Shown piece by piece: positions 92-16,348 of a stretch of 19,417 nt of DNA. The position numbers were made by a program, and so were the translations under genes. This DNA comes from a virus, in the UHGV virus genome UHGV-1532611. The stretch is one strand, 5' to 3'. Under the pieces are notes generated by a model. The model did not search any database, was not told the DNA's origin, and saw nothing but the letters and a program-made list of their open reading frames with translations. Each line of letters opens with the position of its first letter. Positions within the stretch are counted from its first letter, which is position 1.

Positions 92-817
92 TTGATGGGT
101 CACAACGAACGAACCGTTTATATTCTTGCACATCGTAGCTTTATGACAATGAACGCTGAGGTTATCGATTCCCCTGCTTATAAAGAACTTCTTGCATACG
201 TTAAAGCACCGTTCAGAACAGCTTTGGGAAGAAAGGTTCCTTTAGCGTGGGTGAACGTCGATAGCTCAAACGGTCGAGCAACTAAAACAATCTATCGTTT
301 CTGCTCTCAGTGGACAAACCTGAAAGCAATTAAAGGTGCCAGCTCTGTTGATGCCCCTTATGTTCCAACGAAAATCACGAAAACCGGTGGTTATGAACTT
401 TATATGATTGGTGTAAACCAAGGAAAAAACTTAGTTCGTGAACTGCTAAACAGAAGCGTGAAATCTGGAAATACACCAGTCAGAGTCGAAATCTCTGATG
501 ATGTTCCAGATGATTACTGCGAACAGCTTATGTCCGAAGAATTAAAACGCTCTGGTAATACTGTTAGATGGGTTATTAAACAAGGCGGTGTTCGTAACGA
601 AGGTCTTGACTGCTTTAACTACGGTTATTGCGCGCGTCTGCAAGTTCTAGAGAAAATCAAATTTCACGAGTGGAGGAAACTCGCTGCTAAATCTGATATT
701 GAAATGCCAGAAGAACAAAACGAAACAAATTCTCCTGTTATTCAAACTCATGAACCTCGTCGAAACATTATCAAACGAAACAGACCAGTTAATAAGCCTC
801 GTGGTTTCGGATTATAA
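92..817 (+). CDS. Large terminase subunit, C-terminal region (GpA-like); 5' end is frame-disrupted or cut by the window edge
   Basis: Sits directly upstream of a W-position gene and a lambda-family portal. The C-terminal segment VRNEGLDCFNYGY resembles the conserved RNEALDC-type motif near the C-terminus of GpA-family terminases (recalled from memory, not searched). The first in-frame start is TTG 92 / ATG 95 with no clear SD; in-frame stops lie at 5-7 and 23-25. Confidence 0.6.
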   Translation: MMGHNERTVYILAHRSFMTMNAEVIDSPAYKELLAYVKAPFRTALGRKVPLAWVNVDSSNGRATKTIYRFCSQWTNLKAIKGASSVDAPYVPTKITKTGGYELYMIGVNQGKNLVRELLNRSVKSGNTPVRVEISDDVPDDYCEQLMSEELKRSGNTVRWVIKQGGVRNEGLDCFNYGYCARLQVLEKIKFHEWRKLAAKSDIEMPEEQNETNSPVIQTHEPRRNIIKRNRPVNKPRGFGL

Positions 818-820
818 ATA
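813..820 (+). promoter_or_regulatory. Promoter-like TATAAATA box overlapping the terminase stop, upstream of the 838 gene
   Basis: Exact TATAAATA, 17 nt before ATG 838; member of the recurrent cTAAATAaAg motif family. Confidence 0.3.
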
Positions 821-837
821 TAAGAAAGGAGAACTCA

Positions 838-1332
838 ATGCAAAAATCAAATTCAGAAATTTACATCGGTGAAAAACTCGCTGTTTATAATCCTGAAGGT
901 GCAACAGTCTCCATAGGCTCAACTGAAACTAAATTGTTTTCTCAAACTGATTGTCCAGCGAATATCTCGGTGGACACATCAGATTTTATCGAAGGAACTT
1001 TTTCTGTTGTTGTTCTCTATGAAGGTGCGCTTATCAGTAACAGCATTATCAAAGTGAAATCACCATTCGTTTCAAAAACGAAAAGAGAACAACTCAGAGA
1101 AATGATTAACGATATCGATACAGTTATTCAGTATCGTCTGACAAGTAACGAAGAAGCTATTCAACAAATGAGTATTAACGGTAAATCATTCGTTTATGAA
1201 ACGCTTGATTCGCTGCTTATGGCTCGAAAACGACTTTTAGCTAACTTAGCAAATCTGATTAAGTCAGAACAAATGGCAAACGGTAAATCTCCGATTGTTA
1301 CTATTAAAGCGAGGTTCACGAATCCATCATGA
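838..1332 (+). CDS. Hypothetical protein at the gpW (head-tail joining) position; function uncertain
   Basis: 164-aa ORF with a strong SD (aaaggag, 825-831) before ATG 838. Stop overlaps the portal start (ATGA at 1329-1332). Lies between terminase and portal as gpW does in lambda; the C-terminal half has a loosely gpW-like pattern. The W-like call is weak. Confidence 0.5.
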   Translation: MQKSNSEIYIGEKLAVYNPEGATVSIGSTETKLFSQTDCPANISVDTSDFIEGTFSVVVLYEGALISNSIIKVKSPFVSKTKREQLREMINDIDTVIQYRLTSNEEAIQQMSINGKSFVYETLDSLLMARKRLLANLANLIKSEQMANGKSPIVTIKARFTNPS

Positions 1333-2879
1333 GTATTAGAGATTTTTTCACATTTAAAAAAGCAGAACCGAAAACACGTAAACAGAAACAGAAACTGGTA
1401 ATTGATAACGAGCAAGCATATGGCTCACAGTTACAGCGTATTCTTGGTCCTCGAACTGACCGTTTAGATGGCGACTTTCAAGAGAACCTGATTACGACTG
1501 CAACGATTAATAACGAGATTCGAACTTATGCCGATGGCATTCGTAATATGTCTCGAACTCTTTCGATTAATACACCAGTTGGTAAACGTGCTGTTCAATA
1601 TCAAGTTGATAACGTTATCGGTGAAGGTATTAACCCACAATTGCGTATTCTGGGAACAAACGGAAAGCCAAGCAAGAAACTGAACTCTATGATTATGGAC
1701 CAGTTCAGCTATTGGTCAAGTTCAGCAAAACGTTTCAGTAAAAATGAAAGAATGAACTGGCGCAGATTTCAAGAACTCGTTGAACGTTCAAGATTTGTTG
1801 ACGGCGAGGTTTTTATTCGTATTCACGAATCTGATACTGAATTTAAGCTTGAAATTATCGAAGCTTCACGCTGTAAATTTGGCGACAGAGAAACCTCCGA
1901 CAACGGTTATGTTCTTGATGGTATCGAATATAATAACGATGATGTTCCAGTTCGTTACTGGTTTAACACAATAAGCAAAGCAACACAGACTTCATCTGGT
2001 AAATCTGAAGGTATCGACGCTGAAAATATTATTCACTATTACAGAGAATTGTTCCCTGATCAACGCAGAGGCATTCCTGAATGTGTAGCGAATATTGATG
2101 TTATGAACCAATATGATGCTTTCACAAAAGCAACGTTGATTCAGAAACGCGCCGCAGCAAGCTCTATGGGTTTCATCACTCAAGACAAAGACGGTCAAGA
2201 TAATATCGAAATTGATAGCGATAACGAAGGCATTGAAGAATCTCCTGATGTTATTCAAAACTTTGAATCAGGGACAATTCATAAACTTCCTGCTGGTTAC
2301 GATATAAAGCAGTTTAGCTCTACTCAGGGCGGTGACGACTTTATGAACTTCACGAATCGTCTGGAAGACCTGCTTGCTATGGGTTACGGTTTTTACAAAC
2401 AAGGTTGGAAAGGTGACACAGCAAATATTAACTATTCTGCTGCCCGCTTCGGTGATCTTGCACAACGCGTAATGTTTAAATCAGTTCAGCGTAATATTAA
2501 AGAACAGGTTTTTGATGTTATTTTTGAACGTTGGTTACAATGGTCAATTATCAGAGAAACCGTTAATTTGAAAATGACAACTATTCCTTCAGTTCTTCGT
2601 CAGACTGTTTGGACATATCCTCAATGGCAAAGTATCGACCCAATTAAAGATACTCAGAAGGATATTTTTGATGTTGAAAACGGATTCAAATCTGCTTCTG
2701 ATATTATTATTGCTCGCGGTGAAGACCCGGATATTGTATTTGCTCAGGTTGAACAAGAAAGAACTCGTTATGTTCCGAAATACGATAATCAAATTAAAGT
2801 TGCTGCTGCACCTGCTGCATTAACGGCTGATGCTCAAGTGGAAGTTGCTGAAATTAATTCGGATAACTCGGTGGAATAA
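1329..2879 (+). CDS. Portal protein (lambda gpB family)
   Basis: 516 aa, immediately after the terminase/W-position genes. Several blocks align in pattern with lambda gpB as remembered (for example RFQELVERSRFVDGEVFIRI and GDDFMNFTNRLEDLLAMGYGF). The size fits the family. Confidence 0.85.
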   Translation: MSIRDFFTFKKAEPKTRKQKQKLVIDNEQAYGSQLQRILGPRTDRLDGDFQENLITTATINNEIRTYADGIRNMSRTLSINTPVGKRAVQYQVDNVIGEGINPQLRILGTNGKPSKKLNSMIMDQFSYWSSSAKRFSKNERMNWRRFQELVERSRFVDGEVFIRIHESDTEFKLEIIEASRCKFGDRETSDNGYVLDGIEYNNDDVPVRYWFNTISKATQTSSGKSEGIDAENIIHYYRELFPDQRRGIPECVANIDVMNQYDAFTKATLIQKRAAASSMGFITQDKDGQDNIEIDSDNEGIEESPDVIQNFESGTIHKLPAGYDIKQFSSTQGGDDFMNFTNRLEDLLAMGYGFYKQGWKGDTANINYSAARFGDLAQRVMFKSVQRNIKEQVFDVIFERWLQWSIIRETVNLKMTTIPSVLRQTVWTYPQWQSIDPIKDTQKDIFDVENGFKSASDIIIARGEDPDIVFAQVEQERTRYVPKYDNQIKVAAAPAALTADAQVEVAEINSDNSVE

Positions 2880-2880
2880 C

Positions 2881-2890
2881 ACTAAATACA
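2881..2890 (+). promoter_or_regulatory. Promoter-like motif actaaataca upstream of the capsid fusion gene
   Basis: Member of the recurrent intergenic motif family; the same 10-mer recurs inside the gene at 3427-3436. Confidence 0.3.
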
Positions 2891-2904
2891 TTCAGAAAAA
2901 CAAA

Positions 2905-2922
2905 GAGCGTCGAAAGACGCTC
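2905..2922 (+). promoter_or_regulatory. Stable GNRA hairpin in the 5' leader of the capsid fusion gene (not a terminator)
   Basis: gagcgtc-gaaa-gacgctc: perfect 7-bp stem with a GAAA loop, 16 nt upstream of ATG 2939, with no following U-tract. Confidence 0.35.
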
Positions 2923-2938
2923 CAACAGAGGACTGGTA

Positions 2939-4843
2939 ATGCTAAAACTTAAGCGCGATTACACAGTTCAGGGTATTGATTCTGTTGATGGTGTTTTTGA
3001 AATTGCGTTCAGTTCTGAAACTCCTGTTGAAAGACAGATTCAGGATGAATACGGTCAAAACATTACTGTTAATGAAATTCTCGTTCATGACGGCTCACAT
3101 AACGCTGACTTGACCCGAATTAATAACGGTGCTGCTTTGCTGTTTAACCATGATTTTGATAAACACTTGGGAATCGTTATTCCTGATTCTGTTCGAATCG
3201 ATGAAGACAAAATAGGACGAGCAAAAGTCCAATTCAGTCAACACGGTGAATTAGCTAAAGAAATCGGTGCAAAAGTTCAAGAAGGAACAATTAGTAAAAT
3301 CTCTTTCGGATATGACATTAATGAATATCACTTAGAAGGCGACAATCTTATTGTTACGAAATGGGCACCATATGAAATTTCTTTCGTCACTGTTCCTGCT
3401 GACGATAAAGTCGGTTTGGGAAGACTACTAAATACAGATACAACAAACAAACTTAACAAAGGTACTCGAATGAAACGTATTGATGAAATGACTAAAGATG
3501 AACTGGCAGAAATGACTATCGATGAAATTGAAATGCTGTCCGATGAAGATCGTGCAAAGCGTGAAGAAATTCTGGAAGAAGTAGTCGTTGAAAATGAAAA
3601 CGCTGGTGATTCTGCTGTTGAAAAAACTGATGACGCTCCTGCTGCTGTTCCTGCTGGTGACGAACTGACAGAAGAAGAACGCGAAGAAGAAGCGGAAGAA
3701 ATTCTTGAAATCGCACAACGCTACAAAGTAGCACAGAAAGACGTTGCAAGCGCTATCGCTAAAGGCATGACCGCACGTCAATTCAAACGCTCTATTAAAC
3801 CTAATAAATCTGCAACGGTGATTCGCAACATGACTAAAGATACTAAACAAACTCTGGAAAATAAATTCGACCTTGGCGATGCTGTTCGCTCTATGATGAA
3901 TGGTAAAGCTGTTCGCGGTGCTGCTGCTGAATATACTCAAGAAATGTCCCGTAAGCGTCTGATGCGCGGTGCTAACGTTTCTCAAGGTATCTATATGCCA
4001 GTTAGTGCTCTGCAAGGCAAACGCGCTATTAACACTGTATCAACTGTTTCCGCAGTACAAGAAACTGTTCAGCGTTATGATTCATTCGTTGAAATGCTGT
4101 TGAAAGACACTGTTGCTGATAAGCTGGGAGTTAACTTCCTGACTGGTCTGACTACTCCGATTTCTGTTCCTAAGCAGACAAAATCAAGTGTTGATGCATT
4201 CGGTTTCGTTGATGAAAACGGTGAATCTCCAGAAGGCGAAAGCAAATTCGAAAACATTCAGTTTATGCCTAAGACATTTACTGGTGGTAACCCGATTTCT
4301 CGTCAAGCTCTGTTGACTCTGCCTAATCTGGGTGCGTTCATTTCTGACCATATCGTGAATTTCTCACGCGCTAAACTGGAAGGTCTGATGTTCGGTTCTA
4401 TTACCGACGCAAAAGCTCCTCAGTCTATCGTTGCTCAGTTAGTAGCAAAACAGATGGGAATGACCTACAAAGAATTCGTTGTTGAAGCTGCTAAAGCTAA
4501 AGGCGACGGCGTAGCAATGGACAAGTTCAAATATTTGATGGCTGCTGCTCTTGAAGGTGATTTGAAAACCACTCTGCGTGACGCTGGTGTTGCTGGTTAT
4601 ATCATCGACGACCTGAACAAACTGGGCGGACATGATGTTATCGGTTCCGGTCTTGTTAAAGAAGGTCAGGTTATCTCTGGTGACTTCTCTGCTGTAACCG
4701 TAGCTGAGTGGGAAGGTCTTGCTCTTGACCTAGACGACACAACTTACCGTAACAAAGGCGCTATCGTTCCTCGCGTTTGGGCTGATATCGATTGGAAAGT
4801 TTGTGCTGATGATCGTCTGTTCCTGCACGAAAAACAAGCCTAA
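2939..4843 (+). CDS. Prohead protease - scaffold (delta-like) - major capsid protein fusion
   Basis: 634-aa continuous ORF. Residues 1-170 have the HK97-type prohead protease (S78/U35) pattern (NHDFDKHLG, ISFGYD, EISFVTVPADD). Residues about 175-290 are acidic and helical (EEEREEEAEEILE), like a scaffold or delta domain. The C-terminal ~350 aa are of major-capsid size and composition. A terminator follows the gene. Confidence 0.8.
   Translation: MLKLKRDYTVQGIDSVDGVFEIAFSSETPVERQIQDEYGQNITVNEILVHDGSHNADLTRINNGAALLFNHDFDKHLGIVIPDSVRIDEDKIGRAKVQFSQHGELAKEIGAKVQEGTISKISFGYDINEYHLEGDNLIVTKWAPYEISFVTVPADDKVGLGRLLNTDTTNKLNKGTRMKRIDEMTKDELAEMTIDEIEMLSDEDRAKREEILEEVVVENENAGDSAVEKTDDAPAAVPAGDELTEEEREEEAEEILEIAQRYKVAQKDVASAIAKGMTARQFKRSIKPNKSATVIRNMTKDTKQTLENKFDLGDAVRSMMNGKAVRGAAAEYTQEMSRKRLMRGANVSQGIYMPVSALQGKRAINTVSTVSAVQETVQRYDSFVEMLLKDTVADKLGVNFLTGLTTPISVPKQTKSSVDAFGFVDENGESPEGESKFENIQFMPKTFTGGNPISRQALLTLPNLGAFISDHIVNFSRAKLEGLMFGSITDAKAPQSIVAQLVAKQMGMTYKEFVVEAAKAKGDGVAMDKFKYLMAAALEGDLKTTLRDAGVAGYIIDDLNKLGGHDVIGSGLVKEGQVISGDFSAVTVAEWEGLALDLDDTTYRNKGAIVPRVWADIDWKVCADDRLFLHEKQA
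3427..3436 (+). promoter_or_regulatory. Internal copy of actaaataca, 33 nt upstream of the in-frame ATG at 3470
   Basis: Identical 10-mer to 2881-2890; followed by an SD-like aaaggta (3457-3463) and ATG 3470 (Met178 of the fusion ORF). Confidence 0.3.
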
Positions 4844-4844
4844 G

Positions 4845-4874
4845 AAAAGCAAAAGCAAAAGCGAAAGCGAAAGC
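4845..4874 (+). repeat. Tandem hexanucleotide repeat (RAAAGC x5) just after the capsid gene stop
   Basis: aaaagc aaaagc aaaagc gaaagc gaaagc, starting 2 nt after the TAA at 4841-4843 and ending 20 nt before the terminator. Confidence 0.6.
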
Positions 4875-4894
4875 TGAAACTGCTGAATAATCAG

Positions 4895-4920
4895 AGGACT
4901 CCTTCGGGAGTCCTTTTTTC
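4895..4920 (+). terminator. Intrinsic terminator after the capsid gene
   Basis: 8-bp stem aggactcc / ggagtcct around a UUCG tetraloop, followed by a run of six T. Confidence 0.75.
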
Positions 4921-4929
4921 GTTTCTGGA

Positions 4930-4940
4930 CTAAATATAAT
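4930..4940 (+). promoter_or_regulatory. Promoter-like motif ctaaatataat upstream of the 4955 gene
   Basis: Immediately downstream of the capsid terminator; also contains a TATAAT hexamer. Confidence 0.3.
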
Positions 4941-4954
4941 AAAAAGGAGACAAC

Positions 4955-5251
4955 ATGATTTTTCCATATTCAGAAAAACAAAAACAGTCTTTCTTAACTC
5001 GTTTCGGACAGAAAATCAAAATTAACGATTCTGATGAACTCGGTATTGTTGAAATTGAGATTAACAACGATAACGGACAAGTAAGCGAGACAATCTATAT
5101 AACCGCTGATATCAATAAAGTTAAGCAAGAAGATGAAGTTCTATTAAACGAGATTCTGTATACCATTGCGTATCTTGTTAATGATGGTTCAGGACTTGCT
5201 AATTGTTATCTGGCATTTAAAGGCGAACAGGAGACATCATTCTATGACTAA
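4955..5251 (+). CDS. Hypothetical protein at the head-tail connector / head completion position
   Basis: 98-aa ORF with a strong SD (aaaaaggaga, 4941-4950). Lies between the capsid gene and the U-like gene. Function assigned from position only. Confidence 0.55.
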   Translation: MIFPYSEKQKQSFLTRFGQKIKINDSDELGIVEIEINNDNGQVSETIYITADINKVKQEDEVLLNEILYTIAYLVNDGSGLANCYLAFKGEQETSFYD

Positions 5252-5642: not shown

Positions 5643-5649
5643 GACTAAA

Positions 5650-6675
5650 ATGACAAACGATATTTTTGTAGGAAATAACGTCAGAGTTTCAGTTAATCCG
5701 CTAATCGTTGAAATCCCAGGATATAACGACCCAGGTTATGTAAGCACTGATAAACTGGCTGCATTCCCTGTTATCGGATTTAGAAAAGAAGTTCAGACAC
5801 TAGAAGATTACAGAACCGATTTCACAACGAAACTTTCAGGTGACGTAACAATTAACGACACTTCAATAAGCTTATTTGAAGACAGTTCTGACCCAGTTTA
5901 TCAGTTGCTTGATGAAGCTCTTATGGAAAAGAAACTCCTTAGATTCAGAAGTCTTTATGTTATCGATGGAGAAACAAAGAAAGATAATGATGCTGGTCTT
6001 TATCATATTTTTAATGCTTATGTAACGAAGAAAGAAACATCAGGTTCGGCTAACTCAGTCGTTACAACAACTTTTAATCTTTCTCCTGATGGTCAGTTGT
6101 TTACAGGTTTTGCTGAATTCTCAGTTCCGTTAAACGTTGGCGATTATGGTATTGGTGCTGGTACAGAAGAAATCGCAGGCGTTAAAGACTTAGGATTATT
6201 AACTGGTAACAGATGTGTAACAGTCGATGCAACAAACAGCGATAACCCTTATAACTCTGGCACGTCTGCTATGGCTATTCAGCATCCTGATGGTCAAGGT
6301 TGGGAGCTTATTGGTTCGTCAGTCGGTAATCCAAGCATCAGAATCAGAAACAAACAACAAAGCGGTGAAACTGTTACTGAATCTCCGTGGGTCAAAGTCT
6401 ATACAGAACTTGAACGTCCAACTCCTGAAGATATTAATGCTTTGCCTATTACTGGTGGAGAACTCAAAGGATCTTTGACTATTCAGGAATATCTGAACGT
6501 TCGTAAAAAGATTTCTGCGCCACAAGGTGAAATCTTGGCTCTAAATAGTAATGAAATTAACTCAACTTCTGTCAAGGTCAAAGGCAAAGAAGTCTATTCT
6601 CCAAGTAATAAACCAACGCCATTAGAGATTAATTGTGTAGCGTTAGGAGAAACCTTAGACGCAGGAGTATTTTAA
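5650..6675 (+). CDS. Major tail (tube) protein, gpV-like N-domain plus a ~180-aa C-terminal extension
   Basis: Directly follows the U-like gene as V does in lambda. The N-terminal ~160 aa are paralogous to the 9833-10309 product (AFP..G..EV.T......KL.G......D shared). The C-terminal half is Ser/Thr/Gly-rich, consistent with an Ig-like decoration domain as in gpV. Confidence 0.65.
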   Translation: MTNDIFVGNNVRVSVNPLIVEIPGYNDPGYVSTDKLAAFPVIGFRKEVQTLEDYRTDFTTKLSGDVTINDTSISLFEDSSDPVYQLLDEALMEKKLLRFRSLYVIDGETKKDNDAGLYHIFNAYVTKKETSGSANSVVTTTFNLSPDGQLFTGFAEFSVPLNVGDYGIGAGTEEIAGVKDLGLLTGNRCVTVDATNSDNPYNSGTSAMAIQHPDGQGWELIGSSVGNPSIRIRNKQQSGETVTESPWVKVYTELERPTPEDINALPITGGELKGSLTIQEYLNVRKKISAPQGEILALNSNEINSTSVKVKGKEVYSPSNKPTPLEINCVALGETLDAGVF

Positions 6676-9600: not shown

Positions 9601-9771
9601 GTTCGTGAAGCAGGTATTATTGCTCAAGAACTGAAAGAAGTATTACCAGAAGCTGTTAGTTCTTTCGGACCTGACGAAATTCTTGGTGTTAACTCTGCTG
9701 CTGTAAACGCGTTGCTGGTTAATGCTATCAAGGAATTAAGTGCTCGCGTTAAAGAACTTGAAGCTAAATAA
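6688..9771 (+). CDS. Tail fiber protein with C-terminal S74-type intramolecular chaperone (auto-cleaving) domain
   Basis: 1027 aa. Contains the KAGDTMTGDLTV phage-fiber repeat motif, a helical repeat region (DANDAAINTRVDNLNSKVDQNDTAINTKVD), two copies of an LG.NSIA.GD.DTG motif, and the C-terminal SDKRLKS...GIIAQEL...AIKEL domain that closely resembles the T5 pb1 / K1F endosialidase chaperone domain. Confidence 0.88.
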   Translation: MANNKVKHYRTDVAGRKPEAKNMLDGEIAINLADKKIFTKFGDAVINIGNGADAVVEGGQTFTGKIKASDIESDSNLTLKNLDKSDIVFADEHDKAKARISSPAQTDSKGELRVTVAKGKGTGESSDFVLNGNGQLSLPAAPVAPDSATRKDYVDSEISKVQTGSSADLTKLEQKVDANDAAINTRVDNLNSKVDQNDTAINTKVDANKADADEKIKAVNDRLTVDNQTLKDMIDTKVNKAGDTMTGDLTVPSVHAAGNVYAGTLKVTPAGNNGDVLSIENHGRTSKTIHQIAYATDTDDRLLFRRDANEGTDALDLMTMTWGKTGRGMSIDISGQARITDAVTTPLMSVASNFAVGNSLGLNSIAIGDSDTGFKWREDGWLNFYSNNVVTASIAGSENYFNRKTHFRFRSDDGDSNLMAPEGYSLINIDTTTDGNNIGDATTYFGLVNGGKYNHYLRGSGRTYIDTKEGLGVAGPASFYKTIYNNKPYGWYDSESLPDWNTPEQQSNHLRKVRAVGAGSIYHELAMANHPDDRLDNSICWFHGDTPEYWMGSLNTNGRLNLASGVSVNGESNAIQLNIPASNQASYMSGNMDGRNNTWILGKTSENLDIVWSQNMRNDFSTSSGVTLRTNGSVTVQTGTNTAMDIQHNTIQIDGARWAATNDHAYANQWRQNAPMQINFGAVAGESDYYPGYSMNSVSVGHGFSTVVELGTIRGPANSWGKGILRVGTKEESTFGKMANYEFDIDGRFAVPGKINTPSVETNRLTSFGINTDNVLGGNSIAFGDNDTGIRQVTDGNLSIFTNGIQIATFNTAGLTIDRSITINTHNESRGVYVGNVRTGASNAMIQGVVDGWPQWSAWRDRPAGMIVEAQTRDKCINIWKHVHWGTEYGAAMDIYNPGSSAPEAALHIGGADYLFLGNGTANAIQWVSTSDKRLKSNFEEIENAVDKVEKLTGYVYDKKSDLVKTEYSFEVREAGIIAQELKEVLPEAVSSFGPDEILGVNSAAVNALLVNAIKELSARVKELEAK
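9478..9768 (+). other. Region of the tail fiber gene encoding the S74 intramolecular chaperone domain (aa 931-1027)
   Basis: The SDKRLK motif begins at codon 9478-9480, followed by the conserved GxxAQELKEVLPE and AIKEL...ELEAK segments; released by autocleavage in known homologs. Confidence 0.75.
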
Positions 9772-9774
9772 CAA

Positions 9775-9794
9775 AAAGGGGAGAAATCCCCTTT
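9775..9794 (+). terminator. Hairpin / weak terminator after the tail fiber gene
   Basis: aaagggga-gaaa-tccccttt: GC stem with a GNRA loop; the U-tract is short (three T, part of the stem). Confidence 0.5.
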
Positions 9795-9795
9795 G

Positions 9796-9805
9796 CTAAA
9801 TAAAC
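9796..9805 (+). promoter_or_regulatory. Promoter-like motif ctaaataaac upstream of the 9833 gene
   Basis: Directly after the 9775-9794 hairpin. A near copy (ctaaataac, 9764-9772) overlaps the fiber stop codon. Confidence 0.3.
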
Positions 9806-9832
9806 TATATTAACTCAAATAGGAAATTAAAA

Positions 9833-10309: not shown

Positions 10310-10313
10310 TTAA

Positions 10314-10337
10314 AAAGACTCCGCAAGGGGTCTTTTT
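10314..10337 (+). terminator. Intrinsic terminator after the second tail-tube paralog
   Basis: agactcc-gcaa-ggggtct (7-bp stem with one G-U pair, GNRA loop) followed by seven T. Confidence 0.7.
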
Positions 10338-10341
10338 TTGG

Positions 10342-10351
10342 CTCTAAATAA
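10342..10351 (+). promoter_or_regulatory. Promoter-like motif ctaaataaag upstream of the 10367 gene
   Basis: Exact 10-mer shared with 14477-14486 and 15967-15976; sits just after the 10314-10337 terminator. Confidence 0.35.
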
Positions 10352-10366
10352 AGTCAGAGGTGAAAC

Positions 10367-10783
10367 ATGTTTAAATTTCAAGCTGACTTATCAAAATTAC
10401 TTAACCGCTATATCAATCAGCAACACGTTTTCGGTCAAAACGACTGTAATATCCTTGTTGCTGAATATATCGACCTTGTTTGTGCTACTGAATACACAGA
10501 CAAATTAAAAGACAAATACACGAGTATTCCTGAAGGTCTCAAGATTTGCAAAGAGCTAACTGGTTTTAATAACGTTCTCGAAGCGTGTGAAACGCATCTT
10601 GAGAAATCAGAAACTATAGAAACAGGCTCGGTTATCTTAATTAAGAAAAAACATAAAAACCGTGTCTATTACGTTGCATCTATCGTTTTTAATAATAGAG
10701 CATTAGTTGAACATGAAAATAAATATCAACTGATAAACGTCAACGATTTTAATTTTGAATTAATTTTTAACAGGAGAAAATAA
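10367..10783 (+). CDS. NlpC/P60-like tail tip protein (gpK C-terminal domain homolog, no MPN/JAB domain)
   Basis: 138 aa. HVFGQNDCNILVAEY matches the Cys motif of the gpK NlpC/P60 domain (HGVTDCYTLF) and GSVILIKKKHKNRVYYVASIVFNNRALVEH matches GDVLL...NHAAIY.GDGELLHH. Stop overlaps the start of the J-like gene (TAATG). Confidence 0.5.
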   Translation: MFKFQADLSKLLNRYINQQHVFGQNDCNILVAEYIDLVCATEYTDKLKDKYTSIPEGLKICKELTGFNNVLEACETHLEKSETIETGSVILIKKKHKNRVYYVASIVFNNRALVEHENKYQLINVNDFNFELIFNRRK

Positions 10784-13700: not shown

Positions 13701-14472
13701 TTTTAACGCTGATAAAATCGCTATAACGAATAACAATACTCCTGCGGGTGCTGTTGCTCCGTTTATGGTCGCTGATAACAGAGTTTATATGGATTCTGCA
13801 ATGATTCGTAATGCTTCTATCGGTTCAGCACAGATTGCAGATGCTTCTATTAACAACGCTAAGATTCAAAACGGTGCTATTAACAACGCGAAGATTGAAA
13901 ACGGTGCGATTACTACTGCGAAAATTGGTAATGCTCAGATCGGTTCAGCACAGATTGCTTATGAAATATCTTCTGATAACTGGTTCCCTTCCGGTGGTAC
14001 TCAAGGTTGGACAATCAGAAAAGACGGTTGGGCTTCTTTCCAAAACGTTAATATCAGAGGTAACATTCAAGCAGATTCTGGTTATTTCGCAGGTGAAATC
14101 AGAGGCGGTTCAGGTTATTTCACAGGAACTGTATACGCTGACAGAATTGAAGGTGACGTTATCAAAATGGGTCATATAGATCCGTGGACAACAGTTCATA
14201 TTCCTGCTGTTAACTGGAACAGAGTAATTTCTATTCCAAACCTTTCGATTTCAGGCAGAACTTATTCCGGTGGTGCTTGGGGCTACGGAACTGCATGGAT
14301 TAATATGTCGAACGGTCAAGAAATCGTAAGAACAGTTACCAGTGCAATGAGTGGTTCAAACGGTGGTACAGGCATTATCTATGCGGGACAAGCTGTTGAT
14401 TTGAGTTACGGTGCTGACTTGAATCATGCGACCGCAGCAAGAGCAGTTTACTTTATCAGTAAACAACAATAA
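10783..14472 (+). CDS. Tail tip / host specificity protein (gpJ-like) with gpI-like N-terminal segment
   Basis: 1229 aa. The N-terminal Gly/Ala-rich hydrophobic stretch followed by VIPIIYGEQRTGTINV resembles the gpI C-terminus (VLPVLYGEMRVGSRVV). IVDYLTNDRYGLG matches the gpJ LTHPRYGMG region. Two FN3-like segments, a helical region and NAKIxNGAI-type repeats are present, and WAVQTNADGVVAGISM...FNADKIAI resembles gpJ [20 protein letters not shown]...VAANRIAF. The C-terminal ~170 aa are the likely receptor-binding domain. Confidence 0.85.
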   Translation: MAIVAIGAIIAGASAAAAAYAAGAALALAIGIGVAVAAVSALMSTQMAQNVPRFNSTDTATTLGTTSDPSSVIPIIYGEQRTGTINVWKAVGVDTTYLVQIFAICEGEVDSFKNLYMDNQKILLDGVYKDGVLPKGSIAAEYQQYVEVEFSTGKPYGHVFTLAQKYLGNSDAGWPDSATGNNIAACCVVMRKRNSDLQNQADILQPNSQVSVDVRGRLITDLNTGERVSSNNGPSQIVDYLTNDRYGLGIQIDKIDLDSFKEAARYAKLNSLFSDGATDPNGSFKENLTQLAGAFNGIITETFGKVTCRIDGPDVVQYDFNEDNINAGTVSLNDGGSENYYNTLNVKYQDPSIDYSDQVLRYPSDVTNDGTIAKDKRIIAKDISYRFVKSKSQLDKIASIERNKSLLKQVISFSTADAYTAQVWDVIRVNFSELELVNSLWRITNIDRSMNKGAAGIVTITASEYIEEVYTNLDYAKDPDNTGSNIPNKSVLIAPKNLTVKAVAETALGRTLKVQWTSEPDYNRAGYYIQYSLAGKNSWIQAGFTSGDYFLIMSLDPNQKFDIRVCASGVVYRSDWVYVNNVNPEVMYNLPVVTGLHLVNAVENQYTTNKTQFEFAWDDQSAQKFYVDDTLQTFGEVFQYYEIKIEGQRPVIYKTKDLGFVYDFNMNLGNGLSRELKVSVTAYGHAGMKSDPAVITVKNNQAPAIQGFTASNGPGMLMCSWNDPRDNKPEVPDFKGTIVHIAKDQSFNEIVHVYSSSSPFLDNFPLEDGQFYVRSAWYDVFGQDQITWSESKFIDMKWDIPWTDDMKEQLNDLLDLDKRVDGAIDEALDLANKYTDTKVTASEQKVTTELNQTITTKNTELHTQITNETNGAINQAISIQESNFDGKLNSAITKVEKTQADDRQATASSINQLKAETNTAIATVSQESKASVDDLTGTINSKWAVQTNADGVVAGISMLANKNPDGSKQSSIVFNADKIAITNNNTPAGAVAPFMVADNRVYMDSAMIRNASIGSAQIADASINNAKIQNGAINNAKIENGAITTAKIGNAQIGSAQIAYEISSDNWFPSGGTQGWTIRKDGWASFQNVNIRGNIQADSGYFAGEIRGGSGYFTGTVYADRIEGDVIKMGHIDPWTTVHIPAVNWNRVISIPNLSISGRTYSGGAWGYGTAWINMSNGQEIVRTVTSAMSGSNGGTGIIYAGQAVDLSYGADLNHATAARAVYFISKQQ

Positions 14473-14476
14473 CGTT

Positions 14477-14486
14477 CTAAATAAAG
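14477..14486 (+). promoter_or_regulatory. Promoter-like motif ctaaataaag upstream of the 14518 gene
   Basis: Exact 10-mer, 4 nt after the J-like stop and 31 nt before ATG 14518. Confidence 0.35.
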
Positions 14487-14517
14487 ACAAGGAGGTCTTT
14501 TAAAAAGGAGATTCAAG

Positions 14518-14802
14518 ATGGTCGATATAGCACTGATCATTTCCATCTTGGGTGCTCTAGGAGGTTTCTTGGCTTGGGTTTATGCCGAAATTAAATCAAA
14601 CAATGAAAAACGAATTGACCTTGAGAAACGTTTCTCAGACATCGAAAAAAGCATAGCCGTTAATGACGCAAAAGATGCTTCGCTTATAAGCGATATAACA
14701 CGACAACAGGATGAATTTCGAGAGGTCAAATCTGATTTGAAGAATTTAGAAGGAAGAACAGCAAAGCTAGATATCGACCTAGCAGTTCTAAGAGGAAAAT
14801 GA
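14518..14802 (+). CDS. Small membrane-anchored coiled-coil protein (one N-terminal TM helix); function unknown
   Basis: 94 aa with two SD-like elements upstream (aaggagg 14489-14495, aaggag 14505-14510). IALIISILGALGGFLAWVYA is a predicted TM helix, followed by a charged helical region. Stop overlaps the next start (ATGA). No cysteine, so not a lipoprotein. Confidence 0.6.
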   Translation: MVDIALIISILGALGGFLAWVYAEIKSNNEKRIDLEKRFSDIEKSIAVNDAKDASLISDITRQQDEFREVKSDLKNLEGRTAKLDIDLAVLRGK

Positions 14803-15275
14803 AAAGAAAAGAGATTCCGATTTATAAGCAAGAACTCTTTCAAAAGCAAAAAGGTCTTTGTGCTTTAACTGGCATAAAGATTCATGAAGTTAATAAAGCC
14901 CATCTTGACCATGACCATATATTAACAGGCTCTAACGCAGGCAGATGCAGAGGATTATTAATCGCTCAAGCAAACGTCCTAGAGGGCAGAATAAAACATC
15001 AGTTTAAACGTTCGGGTCTCGATGGGAAAATTGACTACATCGAGTTTTTGAAGAATCTTGTTCAGTATCTTGAAAAAGACTACTCAGACAATCCTACGCA
15101 TCCACAACTTATTCCTGATTTAAAGAAGGCGTTCTCTCGAAAAAATCTTTCTGAGATGAAAGCTATTACAGGTTCAAACCTTAAAACGAAAAAGGAGCTT
15201 GAAAAAGTCTACTCAAACCAAATAAAGGTGAAATATGAAAATGAAATATCTCCAAGCATTGGCAAAACACGCTAA
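14799..15275 (+). CDS. T4 endonuclease VII (gp49)-like junction-resolving / HNH-fold nuclease
   Basis: 158 aa (T4 endo VII is 157 aa). HLDHDH, GRCRGLL, N..EG and KHQFKRSGL.G..DYIEFL.NL..YL..DYS.N..HP are collinear with T4 endo VII as remembered. The catalytic Asp/His/His/Asn/Glu equivalents are present. Confidence 0.8.
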   Translation: MKRKEIPIYKQELFQKQKGLCALTGIKIHEVNKAHLDHDHILTGSNAGRCRGLLIAQANVLEGRIKHQFKRSGLDGKIDYIEFLKNLVQYLEKDYSDNPTHPQLIPDLKKAFSRKNLSEMKAITGSNLKTKKELEKVYSNQIKVKYENEISPSIGKTR

Positions 15276-15432
15276 AGATTATCTTATTGTTCTATTTCTC
15301 GTTACTATAACTTATAACACTGTTGCTGTTCCTGTTCTGCAAGCTTTCGATATTAAAGCACCTAAAATGATTCTTATCAGCGAAGAACAGATAAAAACAT
15401 TTGGGACGCTTCTGATGTCAGGAGTGAACTAA
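15235..15432 (+). CDS. Small single-pass membrane protein, hypothetical
   Basis: 65 aa with SD aaggtga (15222-15228) before ATG 15235. Predicted TM helix YLIVLFLVTITYNTVAVPVL. Overlaps the 3' end of the endo VII-like gene by 41 nt in another frame, and its stop overlaps the next start (TAATG), so the call is tentative. Confidence 0.4.
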   Translation: MKMKYLQALAKHAKDYLIVLFLVTITYNTVAVPVLQAFDIKAPKMILISEEQIKTFGTLLMSGVN

Positions 15433-15974
15433 TGGCAAAAGCAAAAGATGTTATGAAAGACCTTGAAAAATGGCGAATCAAAGAATCTGACGTGTTCAGT
15501 AAGAAAGTAACCAAAGCGTCTAAACTCGCTTCTGTTGAGTTGCAAAGAAAAATCAACAGACGAGTCGATGGACCAGTTAATTTCACTAAGAACGCAGTAG
15601 GTTTCAGTTTCAGATACGATCAGAACGGGTCACGAAATAGAATATTCATCAAAGACAAGCAGGCTGATTATCTTGCTCCGTTAATTGATGATAACAAAGG
15701 AATTAACAAGTTTGTTCCAACTGGTGTAAGAGGTTCAAAGAACAAATTCGGTAACATTCCTAACTTGAAATCAAGAAATAATCTTGAAGCTGTCAAGCAA
15801 AAAAAAGATGGCGTAACTCGAACGATCCTCATTAAAACTAACGTTAAAAAGCAAGACCGTCGTTTAATTGCTGTATTCAAGAAAAATCAACACAGAAGAA
15901 AAACTCTGGGTTCATGGAATCAAATCTCTGACGATATATTCAAAACCGTTAAGCGTGTTGCGGGTACTAAATAA
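15432..15974 (+). CDS. Lys/Arg-rich basic protein, hypothetical
   Basis: 180 aa, strongly basic, no cysteine. SD ggagtga (15421-15427). No recognisable family by eye. Confidence 0.6.
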   Translation: MAKAKDVMKDLEKWRIKESDVFSKKVTKASKLASVELQRKINRRVDGPVNFTKNAVGFSFRYDQNGSRNRIFIKDKQADYLAPLIDDNKGINKFVPTGVRGSKNKFGNIPNLKSRNNLEAVKQKKDGVTRTILIKTNVKKQDRRLIAVFKKNQHRRKTLGSWNQISDDIFKTVKRVAGTK

Positions 15975-15976
15975 AG
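15967..15976 (+). promoter_or_regulatory. Promoter-like motif ctaaataaag upstream of the 15992 gene
   Basis: Exact 10-mer overlapping the stop codon of the 180-aa gene, 15 nt before ATG 15992. Confidence 0.35.
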
Positions 15977-15991
15977 TCAAAAGGAGAACAA

Positions 15992-16309
15992 ATGAACATT
16001 CACGATTTTGATACTTACAGATTAGACGAACTTGCCGACATCTACGTTAACGAGATTAATCCCGAGTCAATGACTGTTCCTTACGGTTGCGAACACATCA
16101 AAGATAAGCGAATTAAAAAATATCTGTTCAACGATAAGAACGTTTTTATTGTTTCAACACAGAAGAAAAAACCTAATTGTCATTTCAAATTAGGACAGAC
16201 AGTTCGACTGCAAGGTCCATTTTTTGAGACCGAAGCGAAGAACTTAGGAATGATTGAATATATCCACAAAGGTTTCAGAATGTACGGATATTTCTTTCAA
16301 TGGAAATAA
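15992..16309 (+). CDS. Hypothetical small protein (moron-like unit)
   Basis: 105 aa with a strong SD (aaaaggaga, 15977-15985). A promoter-like motif lies upstream (15967-15976) and a terminator hairpin immediately downstream (16311-16336). Contains two Cys and several His. Confidence 0.65.
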   Translation: MNIHDFDTYRLDELADIYVNEINPESMTVPYGCEHIKDKRIKKYLFNDKNVFIVSTQKKKPNCHFKLGQTVRLQGPFFETEAKNLGMIEYIHKGFRMYGYFFQWK

Positions 16310-16310
16310 C

Positions 16311-16336
16311 AAAAGGGAGCCTCGCGCTCCCTTTTT
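16311..16336 (+). terminator. Intrinsic terminator after the 105-aa gene
   Basis: gggagc-ctcgc-gctccc stem-loop flanked by aaaa upstream and ttttt downstream. Confidence 0.7.
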
Positions 16337-16348
16337 CATAAATAAAAG
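16337..16348 (+). promoter_or_regulatory. Promoter-like motif cataaataaaag upstream of the G-like chaperone gene
   Basis: Directly after the 16311-16336 terminator, 24 nt before ATG 16373. Confidence 0.3.

Follow-up and report, generated by a model that had tools for sequence, protein, structure and literature searches.

Candidate gp55-type late promoters in an integrated siphovirus-type element of Escherichia coli MS 115-1

Gene content of the element

The window, the whole stretch of 19,417 nucleotides that was analysed (virus genome UHGV-1532611), is the right arm of an integrated element of ~34 kb located between ybiT and ldtB in E. coli MS 115-1. Among the genes of the element are those for a serine integrase, endonuclease VII, lysis and defence, together with a complete particle module of the siphovirus type. 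Elements of this kind look temperate: they encode a serine integrase and a regulator (GntR-like or Rha-like) and carry defence cargo. The window begins with the end of an IS3-family insertion (1..91), which splits the large terminase gene; positions 1-79 match scattered sites across many E. coli genomes and positions 80-91 are the rest, up to the resumed terminase ORF at 92. With its large terminase gene split in this way, the MS 115-1 copy is probably packaging-defective. IS insertions are present in several copies of the element, that of MS 115-1 included, and some copies are therefore decaying. The endonuclease VII gene (14799..15275, + strand) encodes a full-length homologue of T4 gp49 (PHROG 423; E = 2e-27 to T4 endonuclease VII, 1e7d/1en7). 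The GC content of the element family is 39%, as against 51% in the host flanks, and is in this respect like that of T-even DNA. The family also carries T-even gp36/gp37/gp38 fibre modules and NUMOD3 homing endonucleases.

Boxes, hairpins and gene junctions

All features described in this section for the window lie on the + strand. A TAAATA-centred motif was placed at eight gene junctions by the initial annotation, and every one of these coordinates holds on re-check; the eight boxes are located 17-51 nt upstream of the starts at 838, 2939, 4955, 9833, 10367, 14518, 15992 and 16373. The first putative late-promoter box (TATAAATA, 813..820, positions -13 to -6 if numbered as in T4) overlaps the stop codon of the terminase gene and is 17 nt from the start (838) of a 164-aa head-tail joining gene; at this junction the TAAATA core is retained in lineages L016, L017, L020 and L022-L026, with differing flanks. 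The second (aCTAAATA, 2881..2888) precedes the protease-capsid fusion gene (2939) by 51 nt, and its core is retained in all 10 lineages compared, as TATAAATA in the DCP80 companion. Between this box and the capsid start codon is a hairpin without a T-run (2904..2923), presumed to be a 5' UTR stem-loop of the capsid mRNA; a hairpin is found at this position in every lineage, with different stem sequences. An intrinsic terminator (10-bp stem, UUCG loop, T-run; 4893..4924) follows the capsid gene, and T4-like phages (YUEEL01 and others) contain a stretch that matches 47 nt of this site at 92% identity. The next candidate box (aCTAAATA, 4929..4936) is 19 nt from a 98-aa gene (4955).

Downstream of the fibre gene, a hairpin with a weak T-run (9775..9794) is flanked by two boxes. 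One (gCTAAATA, 9763..9770) lies on the fibre stop codon just 5' of the hairpin and is also found in L016, L017, L020, L022 and L025; it is of uncertain function, since any transcript from it would start at the hairpin. The other (gCTAAATA, 9795..9802), a putative late promoter with a core retained in all lineages, is 31 nt from the 158-aa tail-tube gene (9833). The tube gene is followed by a terminator hairpin with seven consecutive T (10317..10339), identified by reading the sequence, and by a candidate box (tCTAAATA, 10343..10350) 17 nt from the DUF6950 gene (10367), the unit of which also includes the tail-tip J gene. The core of this box is retained in all lineages, as tATTAAATA in L022-L026 and TATAAATA in L001. 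A further putative promoter (tCTAAATA, 14476..14483; retained in L016 and L017) is 35 nt from a 94-aa membrane protein gene (14518), in a unit with endonuclease VII and a minor tail protein gene. The box at 15966..15973 (aCTAAATA), likewise a candidate promoter, overlaps the stop codon of a 180-aa gene and is 19 nt from a 105-aa gene (15992). The last terminator hairpin with T-run (16315..16336) is supported by sequence reading and by a hairpin scan, which put the same stem on the opposite strand; the putative late-promoter box behind it (CATAAATA, 16337..16344; retained in L016 and L017) is 29 nt from the tail assembly chaperone gene (16373), and its unit continues into the tape-measure gene. 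Four copies thus lie just 3' of terminator hairpins (4893-4924, 9775-9794, 10317-10339 and 16315-16336), and the exact 10-mer ctaaataaag occurs three times (10344, 14477 and 15967), both as previously described. In the left arm of the element, box copies precede terS and terL, and a back-to-back pair occupies the spacer of 45 nt that separates the divergent genes for Dit and lysozyme. Over the element as a whole, almost all genes for building the particle have the motif in front of them.

Weaker copies inside genes were also proposed as internal promoters. These copies are real (3428, 6541 and 10719, plus a fourth at 9764 on the fibre stop codon), and differ in conservation: 3428 is kept in all lineages, 6541 in some of them, and 10719 is not conserved. 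The first of them, a putative internal late-promoter box (aCTAAATA, 3427..3434), is positioned at the protease/scaffold boundary of the protease-capsid gene. Its nucleotides xTA-AAT-Axx are retained in all lineages despite changes of neighbouring residues (LLNT, LINT, TLNI, SINN), and the bases upstream are those of the variant typical of the lineage concerned, giving exact TATAAATA in the DCP80 companion. It is followed by a conserved AAAGG Shine-Dalgarno-like word and in-frame ATG (3453..3472; ATG at 3470-3472, Met178). At 35-60 nt past the internal box, the window, L016, L022, L025 and L026 share a conserved NKG(T/N)(S)RMK segment with its ATG; an in-frame ATG after the box is also present in L017, L001 and L028, and the compared segment of L024 stops short of any such ATG. 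Met178 is presumed to be a nested start, giving scaffold and capsid protein without the protease domain. The box at 6540..6547 (tCTAAATA), inside the 3' part of a 341-aa tail gene and 141 nt from the tail-fibre gene (6688), is a candidate fibre promoter. In the lineage comparison it is retained in the window, L017 and L024, shifted in L016, and absent from L025, L026 and L001; L016 and L022 have another copy closer to the fibre start. The AATAAATA copy at 10718..10725, inside the DUF6950 gene and 58 nt from J, has no conserved counterpart in relatives and is probably a chance occurrence.

Distribution and conservation of the motif

TAAATA occurs 12 times in the window, always on the + (gene) strand. 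As was noted earlier, the hexamer is not over-represented overall (12 vs 16.8 +/- 4.2 expected, both strands); CTAAATA is present in 9 copies vs 3.5 +/- 1.9 expected. The signal was attributed to intergenic placement, and this is confirmed: seven of the nine intergenic regions of at least 15 nt (543 nt including the upstream stop codon) contain TAAATA, vs a mean of 0.54 and a maximum of 5 in dinucleotide shuffles, none of 5000 reaching 7. It is the most widespread 6-mer in these nine regions, above Shine-Dalgarno words, and its density is 12.9 per kb in intergenic and 0.16 per kb in coding DNA. To this is added its absence from the antisense strand of genes (0 vs 7.8 +/- 2.4 expected from synonymous-codon shuffles, 0 of 1000 being that low); 14 other hexamers of the same composition have 4-14 minus-strand copies each. 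Sense copies inside genes number 3 vs 6.9 expected by the same procedure (P = 0.046). A Shine-Dalgarno-like word and an ORF start (at least 50 aa) follow within 8-70 nt in 11 of the 12 copies, compared with 13% for control hexamers. Directly 3' of the motif is an A-rich segment. No conserved base was found upstream of position -13/-12, nor a -35 element or TG extension, and a sigma-70 consensus scan gave fewer sites than chance and none at any junction.

The TAAATA core is invariant at eight syntenic junctions and two intragenic sites among lineages with 40-75% portal identity; flanks and terminator stems have diverged among the lineages that share it. The two bases 5' of the core differ by lineage, with (a/g/t)CTAAATA in the window, NATAAATA in others, and exact TATAAATA in the DCP80 companion, a relative of about 30.6-30.7 kb. 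No non-structural protein or regulator is common to all lineages, although the core is. Late promoters of T4 have the consensus TATAAATA, in which -13 varies, and lack a -35; those of Aeh1 are (a/g)CTAAATA (PMC2988020; PMC1524935). Judged by sequence, the lineage variants are the variants of gp55-type late promoters published for T4, Aeh1 and other T4-like phages. The ViI-like phages encode gp55, gp33 and gp45 (PMC3184105). In E. coli phage CBA120, the present analysis found boxes resembling gp55-type variants at late genes: candidate aCTAAATA/gCTAAATA copies lie 23-40 nt 5' of the genes for the scaffold, orf192 (which closely precedes portal), the sheath, head closure, tail and baseplate wedge, and the genes for the tail tube and baseplate hub have TATAAATA in front of them. 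By variant, the CTAAATA boxes would fit Kuttervirus/ViI-like or Aeh1-like phages, and the TATAAATA boxes of the DCP80 companion T-even phages. The resemblance to T4 late promoters suggested at the outset is upheld in that the boxes are -10-only, gene-oriented, purged from the antisense strand, conserved at syntenic junctions and variable in the manner published.

Candidate readers of the boxes

The idea of a phage running its own T4-style late scheme, as first envisaged, is not supported. The window belongs to an integrated element of ~34 kb rather than a T4-like genome, and the proposed search of the remaining genome for a late sigma factor or co-activator was negative across the whole known element. 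Sequence-family searches of the element detected no gp55, gp33, gp45, other sigma factor or recognisable replication gene. PHROG/Pfam scans, which covered the proteins of the L015 element except the annotated terminase, portal, TIR, retron RT and IS3 transposase genes, gave no such reader in that element, the L016 early region or selected ORFs of the DCP80 companion, and phmmer --max, with T-even gp55, gp33 and gp45 as queries and the six-frame translations of four elements as targets, returned nothing better than E = 0.2. The reader is therefore external to the element or an unrecognised protein. Among the proteins of unassigned function (246 aa and 59 aa; 243 aa in the DCP80 companion) there could be an initiator, or a promoter-specificity factor of a new kind, that sequence searches miss. 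The negative control was Arya, a temperate phage that is autonomous and shares this type of head module; it has a repressor, helicase, primase, SSB and late activator, and lacks the TAAATA pattern.

The contig of the DCP80 companion is circularly closed, its first and last 111 nt being identical, and has 16 exact TATAAATA copies, two MotA-type middle promoters, no sigma-70-like sites (0 vs 6.2 expected), no integrase and no detectable replication genes. It was deposited with 22 T-even contigs under a single accession. The helper link comes from this one GenBank record, which is of poor quality, and two unrelated phages in one lysate would give rise to the same record.

The explanation put forward here, with moderate confidence, is that the boxes are gp55-type late promoters and that a T4-like or ViI-like phage, on superinfection, provides their reader in trans. 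Their identity as promoters is well supported by the pattern of the motif; their activity and start sites, the dependence on a helper phage, gp55-RNA polymerase as reader, and replication and packaging of the element during helper infection are what we infer. Somewhat doubtful, yet the strongest competitor, is the reading of these elements as self-sufficient temperate phages, in which host core RNA polymerase with an element-encoded factor lacking detectable gp55 similarity reads the boxes, host machinery with an unrecognised initiator replicates the DNA, and the likeness to T4 reflects convergence or an old shared origin. It agrees with the integrase, the regulator divergent from terL, the sigma-70-like promoters of regulatory genes, and conserved proteins without assigned function (246 aa, 59 aa and an FmdB-like zinc ribbon), the last being similar to CBA120 orf085, a neighbour of a gp33 homologue. 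A temperate phage can also couple late transcription to a sliding clamp, as is reported for Mu (PMC12867686). However, no non-structural protein occurs in all lineages sharing the core, the DCP80 companion and L028 being without the GntR-like, 59-aa and 246-aa proteins; the zinc-ribbon protein is missing from the window's own element, as is the complete gene set of the autonomous relative Arya from these elements; and the lineage variants coincide with known gp55 variants, the TATAAATA type being the one co-deposited with T-even phages.

Reading by a host holoenzyme (sigma-70, sigma-S or another E. coli sigma factor, perhaps with a host or element activator), the boxes being unusual -10 elements, is improbable. 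TATAAA within TATAAATA matches the sigma-70 -10 hexamer at 5/6 positions, and a C just 5' of the -10 hexamer recalls sigma-S promoters, but no register of CTAAATA places A at -11 together with T at -7, unrelated terminator stems occupy the would-be position of the missing -35, there is no TG extension, and sigma-70 sites are below chance and absent from junctions. Constitutive reading would moreover express lysis and virion genes in the lysogen, and strong antisense purging fits a minimal promoter needing nothing else. Least probable of all is a motif that is no promoter but an RNA processing or stability site, a translation signal, or a by-product of TAA stops and AT-rich spacers. Three copies do overlap stop codons (815, 9765 and 15968) and many adjoin hairpins; five intergenic copies are nevertheless free of any stop codon, the shuffles never reach the observed count, an RNA signal in the sense transcript leaves the antisense purging unexplained, the distance to the start codon (17 to 51 nt) is unlike that of a translation signal, and the back-to-back pair in the divergent spacer fits promoters.

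Under the proposed trans-reading by a helper phage, the element would possess about ten gp55-type late promoters, each an 8-bp, -10-only box N(C/A)TAAATA without a -35 element. Each would drive a short transcription unit with genes for the head, tail, fibre, lysis or endonuclease VII, and many of these units end at an intrinsic terminator just before the next box; the box inside the protease-capsid gene, with the conserved in-frame start, would yield capsid protein without protease. Since the sequence-family searches turned up no sigma factor, co-activator, sliding clamp or replication protein, the boxes would be silent in the lysogen until host core RNA polymerase receives gp55, along with gp33 and the gp45 clamp, from a lytic phage that superinfects the cell. 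T-even phages degrade cytosine DNA, and Alc blocks late transcription of such DNA; a chromosomal copy would need to escape both or undergo replication beforehand, which speaks against the proposal. No paper on such a satellite was found in a literature survey of incomplete coverage. The element family may be a satellite or hyperparasite that makes its own virion and borrows the late transcription of its helper, probably its replication too. If this is true, the particle genes of an integrated element would be expressed only upon infection by a T4-like phage.

Placement and orientation of the TAAATA box

The TAAATA-centred motif, which the initial annotation had proposed at gene junctions as a candidate late promoter of the T4 style, is present in the window at every site listed for it. 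The bare hexamer is not over-represented, as had been stated (12 copies versus 16.8 ± 4.2 by chance, both strands together), and the signal lies, again in agreement with that annotation, in its placement. Seven of the nine intergenic regions of at least 15 nt (543 nt in total) contain TAAATA, the shuffle mean being 0.54, and none of 5000 dinucleotide-preserving shuffles reaches seven. TAAATA is the most widespread 6-mer of these nine regions, with ribosome-binding words ranking behind it. At an eighth junction (15968) the motif spans the stop codon of the upstream gene. Of the 12 copies, 11 have within the next 8-70 nt a Shine-Dalgarno-like word and the beginning of an ORF that is 50 aa or longer; the same figure for 14 other hexamers of equal composition, used as a control, is 13%.

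All 12 copies lie on the plus strand. Antisense copies are absent from the whole window, where 7.8 ± 2.4 are expected from synonymous-codon shuffling within each gene, and none of 1000 such shuffles was free of them; other A4T2 hexamers have 4-14 copies each on the minus strand. Sense copies within genes number three versus 6.9 expected (P = 0.046). Purging of TAAATA from the wrong strand is the pattern expected if the six-base word alone suffices to start transcription. An origin of the motif as a by-product of TAA stop codons or of AT-rich spacers was ruled out by the shuffles and by the strand asymmetry.

Every box of the window stands ahead of a unit for head, tail, fibre, lysis or endonuclease VII. 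The virion module contains about ten boxes and four terminators, a box often following just after a terminator. In the left arm of the same element, a 45-nt spacer between the divergent distal-tail and lysozyme genes has one TAAATA per strand, each pointing toward its own gene, and more copies are found ahead of terS and terL. On this sequence evidence the boxes very probably function as promoters.

The carrier element and its relatives

Positions 80-19417 of the window are 100% identical to the chromosome of Escherichia coli MS 115-1 (NZ_CP146665.1, record 3149620-3169011). The element to which the window belongs is an insertion of ~34 kb between ybiT and ldtB, the window being its right-hand 19.4 kb, and has a GC content of 38.9% versus 50.7% in the host flanks. 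The left end, adjoining ybiT, encodes a large serine recombinase and a 245-aa protein of no assigned function; a baseplate-hub fragment and the distal tail protein follow on the opposite strand, and then, in this order, a T4-lysozyme-type hydrolase, a YuaX/TIR pair, the small terminase and a retron reverse transcriptase annotated as 'Ec67 family'. Genes for 246-aa and 59-aa proteins and for a GntR-like 144-aa regulator lie between the retron reverse transcriptase and the large terminase (gpA type, split by IS3). From the large terminase onward the genes lie on the plus strand; after it come the head-tail joining protein, a portal of the lambda type, a protease-capsid fusion of the HK97 type and two small head/neck proteins. 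Next are a tail protein of 341 aa, a fibre of 1027 aa that bears an S74 chaperone domain, the tail tube protein, DUF6950 and a tip protein of the J type, followed by a membrane protein of 94 aa, endonuclease VII, a minor tail protein, the chaperones and the tape measure. No gene of the window is on the other strand. A full virion set is therefore encoded (terminase, portal, capsid, tail, fibres, tape measure and lysis).

The end of an IS3-family element occupies window positions 1-91 and interrupts terL of the MS 115-1 copy, which is thus probably unable to package at present; positions 1-79 match scattered sites in many E. coli genomes. IS insertions are also found in other copies, in the capsid gene or elsewhere (loci L006 and L017), so that several copies appear to be decaying. 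The defence cargo, consisting of the YuaX/TIR pair and the 'Ec67 family' reverse transcriptase, is located at positions 11641-15944 of the complete element (L015), in the interval between terS and the regulatory genes. A link to retron Ec67 as part of a 34 kb element at the same map position was considered and dropped: the classical Ec67 retron sits in a 186-related prophage (PMC6868368), and the element of the window is thus a different carrier. A gene-free stretch of 1.1 kb (L015 17131-18250), between the genes for the 246-aa and 59-aa proteins, contains the GC-rich short repeats gcgaagcg, gcatcgat and cctgcttc and is a candidate cos or origin region. Two ORFs ahead of the tape measure (window 16373-17079), of 102 aa and of 104 or 120 aa, occupy the position of the G/GT tail chaperone pair. 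The sole match of an Rfam search of the whole element is an IS frameshift element.

The exact portal protein occurs in 304 blocks of the contig collection; of the ten places listed, nine are chromosome-sized contigs and the tenth is a 243 kb metagenome scaffold. Portal homologues with 40-75% identity were found in E. coli, Citrobacter, Klebsiella, Pantoea and Serratia. A portal-profile scan of the GTDB species representatives gave no matches, and a metagenome scan recovered five loci only, all of them close relatives. For the comparison of gene junctions the window was set against ten loci. Two are E. coli prophages occupying its own insertion site, with DNA identities of 76% and 87%, and six are IMG/VR viral contigs; the last two, each with 40% portal identity, are a prophage at a different site (L028) and contig 1 of GenBank record PQ671644.

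The TAAATA core is invariant across the ten loci at eight syntenic junctions, namely terminase/head-tail joining, portal/capsid, capsid/98-aa gene, fibre/tube, tube/DUF6950, J/94-aa gene, 180-aa/105-aa gene and 105-aa gene/chaperone. The spacers around the boxes, terminator stems included, diverge between lineages, and junctions at which genes abut or overlap are motif-free in every lineage. The strand bias of TAAATA recurs in the relatives (8:0 in L026, 11:1 in L025, 20:3 in L041 and 17:4 in L038). A hairpin without a T-run (window 2904-2923), between the box and the start of the capsid gene, occupies its position in every lineage with a stem sequence that differs each time; it may be a stem-loop of the 5' UTR that acts in mRNA stability or in the control of translation. 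In L041 an AbiJ-like defence gene and its neighbour are also preceded by CTAAATA, 23 and 50 nt upstream (2462-2490 and 1299-1354), and the expression of cargo and virion genes may share one trigger.

The initial annotation had also regarded weaker copies inside genes as possible internal promoters. Two of these are conserved; the third, at 10718, is not conserved in the relatives and is probably due to chance. The copy at 3427-3434 lies at the end of the protease domain of the protease-capsid gene, where the nucleotides xTA-AAT-Axx are fixed in all lineages despite changing residues (LLNT, LINT, TLNI, SINN). An in-frame ATG follows ~35-60 nt past this box in every lineage for which the compared segment is long enough (3470 in the window, Met178), and it is preceded in most lineages by a conserved AAAGG word. 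The region 3427-3472 looks like a nested promoter and start, from which scaffold plus capsid protein minus the protease would be made in excess over the fusion. The second conserved copy (6540-6547), 141 nt upstream of the fibre gene, is retained in most lineages.

Box type and the search for its reader

The core of the box is constant, and the two bases preceding it (-13 and -12, by analogy to T4) are specific to the lineage. The window and L016, L017, L020, L024 and L028 mostly have (a/g/t)C, giving CTAAATA; in L022, L023, L025 and L026 the bases are NA, for NATAAATA, one junction having tAT instead; L041 has both C-type and A-type boxes; and contig 1 of PQ671644 has TA at nearly all sites, i.e. 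the exact TATAAATA of T4, with 16 copies in 30.7 kb. Of the 12 boxes in the window nine are CTAAATA and one is TATAAATA; the remaining two are other ATAAATA boxes, of which one is probably there by chance. In a position matrix of 16 sites no base is conserved from -10 to -3 relative to the box; the region upstream of the boxes consists of unrelated terminator stems in different lineages, and there is no -35 element. A is the commonest base at seven of the ten positions 3' of the box, a weak criterion in DNA of 39% GC.

Late promoters of T4 consist of TATAAATA at -13 to -6, with no -35 element, A/T-rich downstream sequence and A frequent at -13; in Aeromonas phage Aeh1, a/gC replaces TA at -13/-12 (PMC2988020, PMC1524935). 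The boxes described here share with T4 an 8-bp, -10-only element, an A/T-rich downstream region and a scattered distribution before virion and lysis genes in either orientation, often after a terminator, and differ from T4 by the C at -12 in most boxes of the window. The (a/g)CTAAATA form is that of Aeh1. A regulatory motif reported for the Ackermannviridae is CTAAATAcCcc (PMC7283392), whereas the boxes of the window continue with A-rich sequence (aag, taa). In 150 kb of the E. coli Kuttervirus CBA120, examined directly, aCTAAATA or gCTAAATA is found 23-40 nt upstream of six genes, namely those for scaffold, tail sheath, head closure, a large tail protein and baseplate wedge and orf192, a small ORF that immediately precedes the portal gene; TATAAATA is found ahead of two others, for tail tube and baseplate hub. 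Within its composition class TAAATA is the least frequent hexamer of CBA120 and the one most often ahead of ORFs. The mixture of box variants in the window thus matches the mixture used by a coliphage that encodes gp55, the late sigma factor of T4. Taken together, the family has TATAAATA or a documented variant of this 8-bp box (A at -13, or a/gC at -13/-12), no -35 element, A/T-rich downstream sequence and a late-gene orientation, and the boxes are likely, if less surely than they are promoters, to be of the gp55 type. Promoters of that type are used by core RNA polymerase carrying gp55, which initiates 6-7 nt past the box and is enhanced by gp33 and DNA-loaded gp45.

Readers of a host or lambdoid kind fit the boxes poorly. 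A simple sigma-70 scan of the window gave 35 sites versus 47.8 ± 8.4 expected, none of them at a plus-strand junction. Sigma-70 promoters consist of TTGACA, a 16-18 nt spacer and TATAAT, and CTAAATA fits their -10 hexamer (A at -11, T at -7) in no register. Late regulation of the lambdoid type, from a single late promoter with an antiterminator, was rejected in view of the number of boxes and terminators inside the virion module and because no Q-like protein was found among the element proteins scanned. As an external control, Enterobacter phage Arya (Jilinvirus) shares with the element the gene order terminase (gpA type), head-tail joining protein, portal (lambda type), protease-capsid fusion; TAAATA occurs in it eight times on the plus and nine times on the minus strand, with 3 of the 17 copies before ORFs and no oriented pattern. 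Arya is an autonomous temperate phage of 54% GC with a CI-like repressor, helicase, primase, SSB, exonuclease and late activator.

The initial annotation had suggested a search for gp55 or its co-activator gp33 in the remainder of the genome. The remainder of the element is now fully known, and neither was found in it. PHROG and Pfam scans of the element proteins other than the already annotated terminase, portal, TIR, retron reverse transcriptase and IS3 transposase detected no gp55, gp33, sliding clamp (gp45) or sigma factor of any kind; the proteins scanned belong to the virion, lysis, integration and defence, together with endonuclease VII, a wHTH regulator and a few proteins of no assigned function. 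With phmmer --max, T-even gp55, gp33 and gp45 searched against all stop-to-stop segments of at least 35 aa in four elements gave a best E value of 0.2. No replication proteins are recognisable in the elements. As an integrated, siphovirus-like carrier of ~34 kb with a lambda-type terminase and portal, an HK97-type capsid and no gp55, gp33 or gp45, the element of the window is not a T4-family phage. It differs in the same respect from Aeh1 and the ViI-like phages, which encode these factors themselves (for the ViI-like phages PMC3184105, and also by genome annotation). L016, with a larger early region, additionally encodes a homing endonuclease and proteins of the YadA-like and FmdB-like zinc-ribbon kinds, besides small uncharacterised ones. 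The zinc ribbon (69 aa; L016 8832-9041, L027 43094-43339) is present in several relatives and absent from the element of the window; it is 37% identical over 46 aa to orf085 of CBA120, which adjoins the gp33 homologue of that phage.

A new factor encoded by the elements could be hidden among their uncharacterised proteins, and with an integrase and a regulator the elements do look temperate. No non-structural protein is common to all lineages. Only close relatives of the window have the GntR-like regulator, the 59-aa protein and the 246-aa protein; L028 has a different protein of 130 aa, contig 1 of PQ671644 has none of the three, and its 243-aa protein shows no similarity to the 246-aa protein of the prophages. 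Because the promoter core is family-wide and no candidate reader is common to the family, the comparison points to a reader encoded outside the elements. The promoter type itself is already known. In the literature searched, no case turned up of an integrated non-T4 element that uses it while lacking the cognate sigma factor, and nothing relevant was found there on satellites or prophages using T4 late promoters, on satellites of T-even phages or on phage DCP80.

Ties to T4-like phages and a possible helper

Other features connect the family to T4-like phages. The endonuclease VII is homologous to T4 gp49 over its full length (E = 2e-27), and the fibre of the window (6688-9771) matches the PHROG family of long-tail-fibre distal subunits. 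Fibres of relatives have gp36 and gp37 domains (e.g. L029 6788-9085 and L038 15446-19017), and in L038 and L039 a gene for the adhesin gp38, the receptor-binding tip of T-even phages, lies directly 3' of the fibre gene. NUMOD3 homing endonucleases are frequent in the family. At the capsid terminator, 47 nt (window 4878-4924) are 92% identical to the T4-like phages YUEEL01, TOPO13 and 215Ecol030PP, where the counterpart is annotated near soc or capsid genes. The GC content of the element is that of T-even contigs. The ties of fibre, endonuclease VII, homing endonucleases, terminator and GC content point to repeated recombination with T4-like genomes, and hence to presence in the same cell at the same time.

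GenBank record PQ671644 is entitled 'Escherichia phage DCP80, complete genome', is filed under Tevenvirinae and consists of 23 contigs joined by N-runs, the longest first. Contigs 2-23 have T-even annotations, some of them duplicated, and the one stretch searched directly (30721-35789) matches T-even phages, among them TH44 and UPEC01, at 95-98% identity; the taxonomy line (Gaprivervirus) fits these contigs only. Contig 1 (30,710 nt) is the companion genome related to the window. Its first 111 nt equal its last 111 nt, so that the assembly is circularly closed and the genome of ~30.6 kb is complete. It encodes terS, terL, portal, protease-capsid, tail, fibre, tape measure, hub and J, together with endonuclease VII, an endolysin, an HNH endonuclease and about a dozen small uncharacterised ORFs on the other strand. 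An annotated integrase and a sigma factor are lacking, and outside the virion module no protein exceeds 243 aa. A non-coding, repeat-rich stretch of 1.25 kb (L001 1-1260) contains two tandem perfect MotA-type middle promoters (minus strand, starts at 977 and 829), which are directed into the cluster of small ORFs. The pattern of MotA-dependent middle promoters, (a/t)(a/t)TGCTT(t/c)A-N12-TATAAT, has three matches in the whole companion genome versus 0.4 expected, and the loose sigma-70 pattern TTGAC-N17-19-TAnnnT has none versus 6.2 expected. MotA-type middle promoters were found in the companion only and in none of the E. coli prophage forms. The stretch L001 1-1260 could be an origin in the style of T4, i.e. 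a middle promoter with an unwinding element. The companion type is absent from 5426 complete E. coli genomes and is thus not a common E. coli prophage.

Only one family member was found outside a chromosome. Its genome is complete, the only signals in it are middle and late ones of the T-even type, and it comes from the preparation that also yielded a T-even phage; this co-occurrence is seen in PQ671644 alone, a record of poor quality. The same record would arise from a lysate in which two independent phages were mixed, but the gene content of the companion makes an independent life hard to picture. The reading preferred here is that the boxes are read through factors supplied by a helper phage. 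In the lysogen the boxes would be silent, the host holoenzymes not using them. Upon superinfection, gp55 of the incoming phage, with gp33 and the DNA-loaded gp45 clamp, would redirect the host core polymerase to the boxes, and the element would be expressed on the late schedule of the helper. The machinery of the helper would replicate the element, for which endonuclease VII would fit a branched, recombination-driven mode, and the element's own terminase would package it into its own siphovirus-type particles. The box variant would indicate the helper: Kuttervirus-like phages for CTAAATA (the lineage of the window) and T-even phages for TATAAATA (the companion). A difficulty for the helper reading is that T-even phages attack and silence DNA containing cytosine. 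The whole chain, from gp55-type promoters through to helper dependence, is in our estimate evenly poised between right and wrong.

The closest analogue is provided by the virophages, such as Sputnik, which have their own capsid genes, no transcription apparatus and, before each gene, the late promoter of the giant virus that they parasitise. The likeness is one of logic, and dependence in the present family is inferred; the virophages belong to another domain of life and have unrelated proteins, whereas integration here is chromosomal and by a serine recombinase. Like P4, PICI/SaPI, capsid-forming PICI and PLE, the elements are integrated, with their own integrase and with defence cargo (the companion being without integrase). 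P4, PICI and PLE stay silent until a helper infects and then use its functions, as would be presumed for this family. They take all or part of the helper virion and usually have their own replication initiator; this family has a complete virion and would instead take transcription, and probably replication, from the helper.

A tentative extension, which we hold to be somewhat less probable than the helper chain itself, is that the family are hyperparasites of T4-like and ViI-like lytic phages, with their own virion, the late transcription and replication of the helper, and boxes matched to its variant. The family would comprise the forms found in the chromosomes of E. coli, Citrobacter, Klebsiella, Pantoea and Serratia and at least one form that does not integrate. 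The gp36/gp37/gp38 fibre tips of some members would aim at the hosts of the helper, and members with a T-even helper would pair TATAAATA boxes with MotA-type middle promoters.

On a conservative reading too, the family offers a clean natural set of gp55-type variants on a non-T4 background and a conserved case of a promoter nested in a protease-capsid gene. T4-like and Kuttervirus phages serve in phage therapy and biocontrol. A resident element firing on the late program of such a phage could cut phage yield and spread retron, TIR and Abi defence genes, and it could contaminate phage stocks and genome records, the DCP80 entry being an example. T4 is among the best-studied viruses, yet no account of a satellite or hyperparasite of T4-like phages was found in the literature searched; if the gp55 of a helper is the trigger, these would be the first known mobile elements to use the late sigma factor of another phage. 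The promoter variant would then predict the helper phage of a given element, and the usual bargain of satellites would be inverted, the virion being kept and transcription and replication borrowed. The family would thereby represent a new sort of phage parasite, the bacterial counterpart of the virophages.
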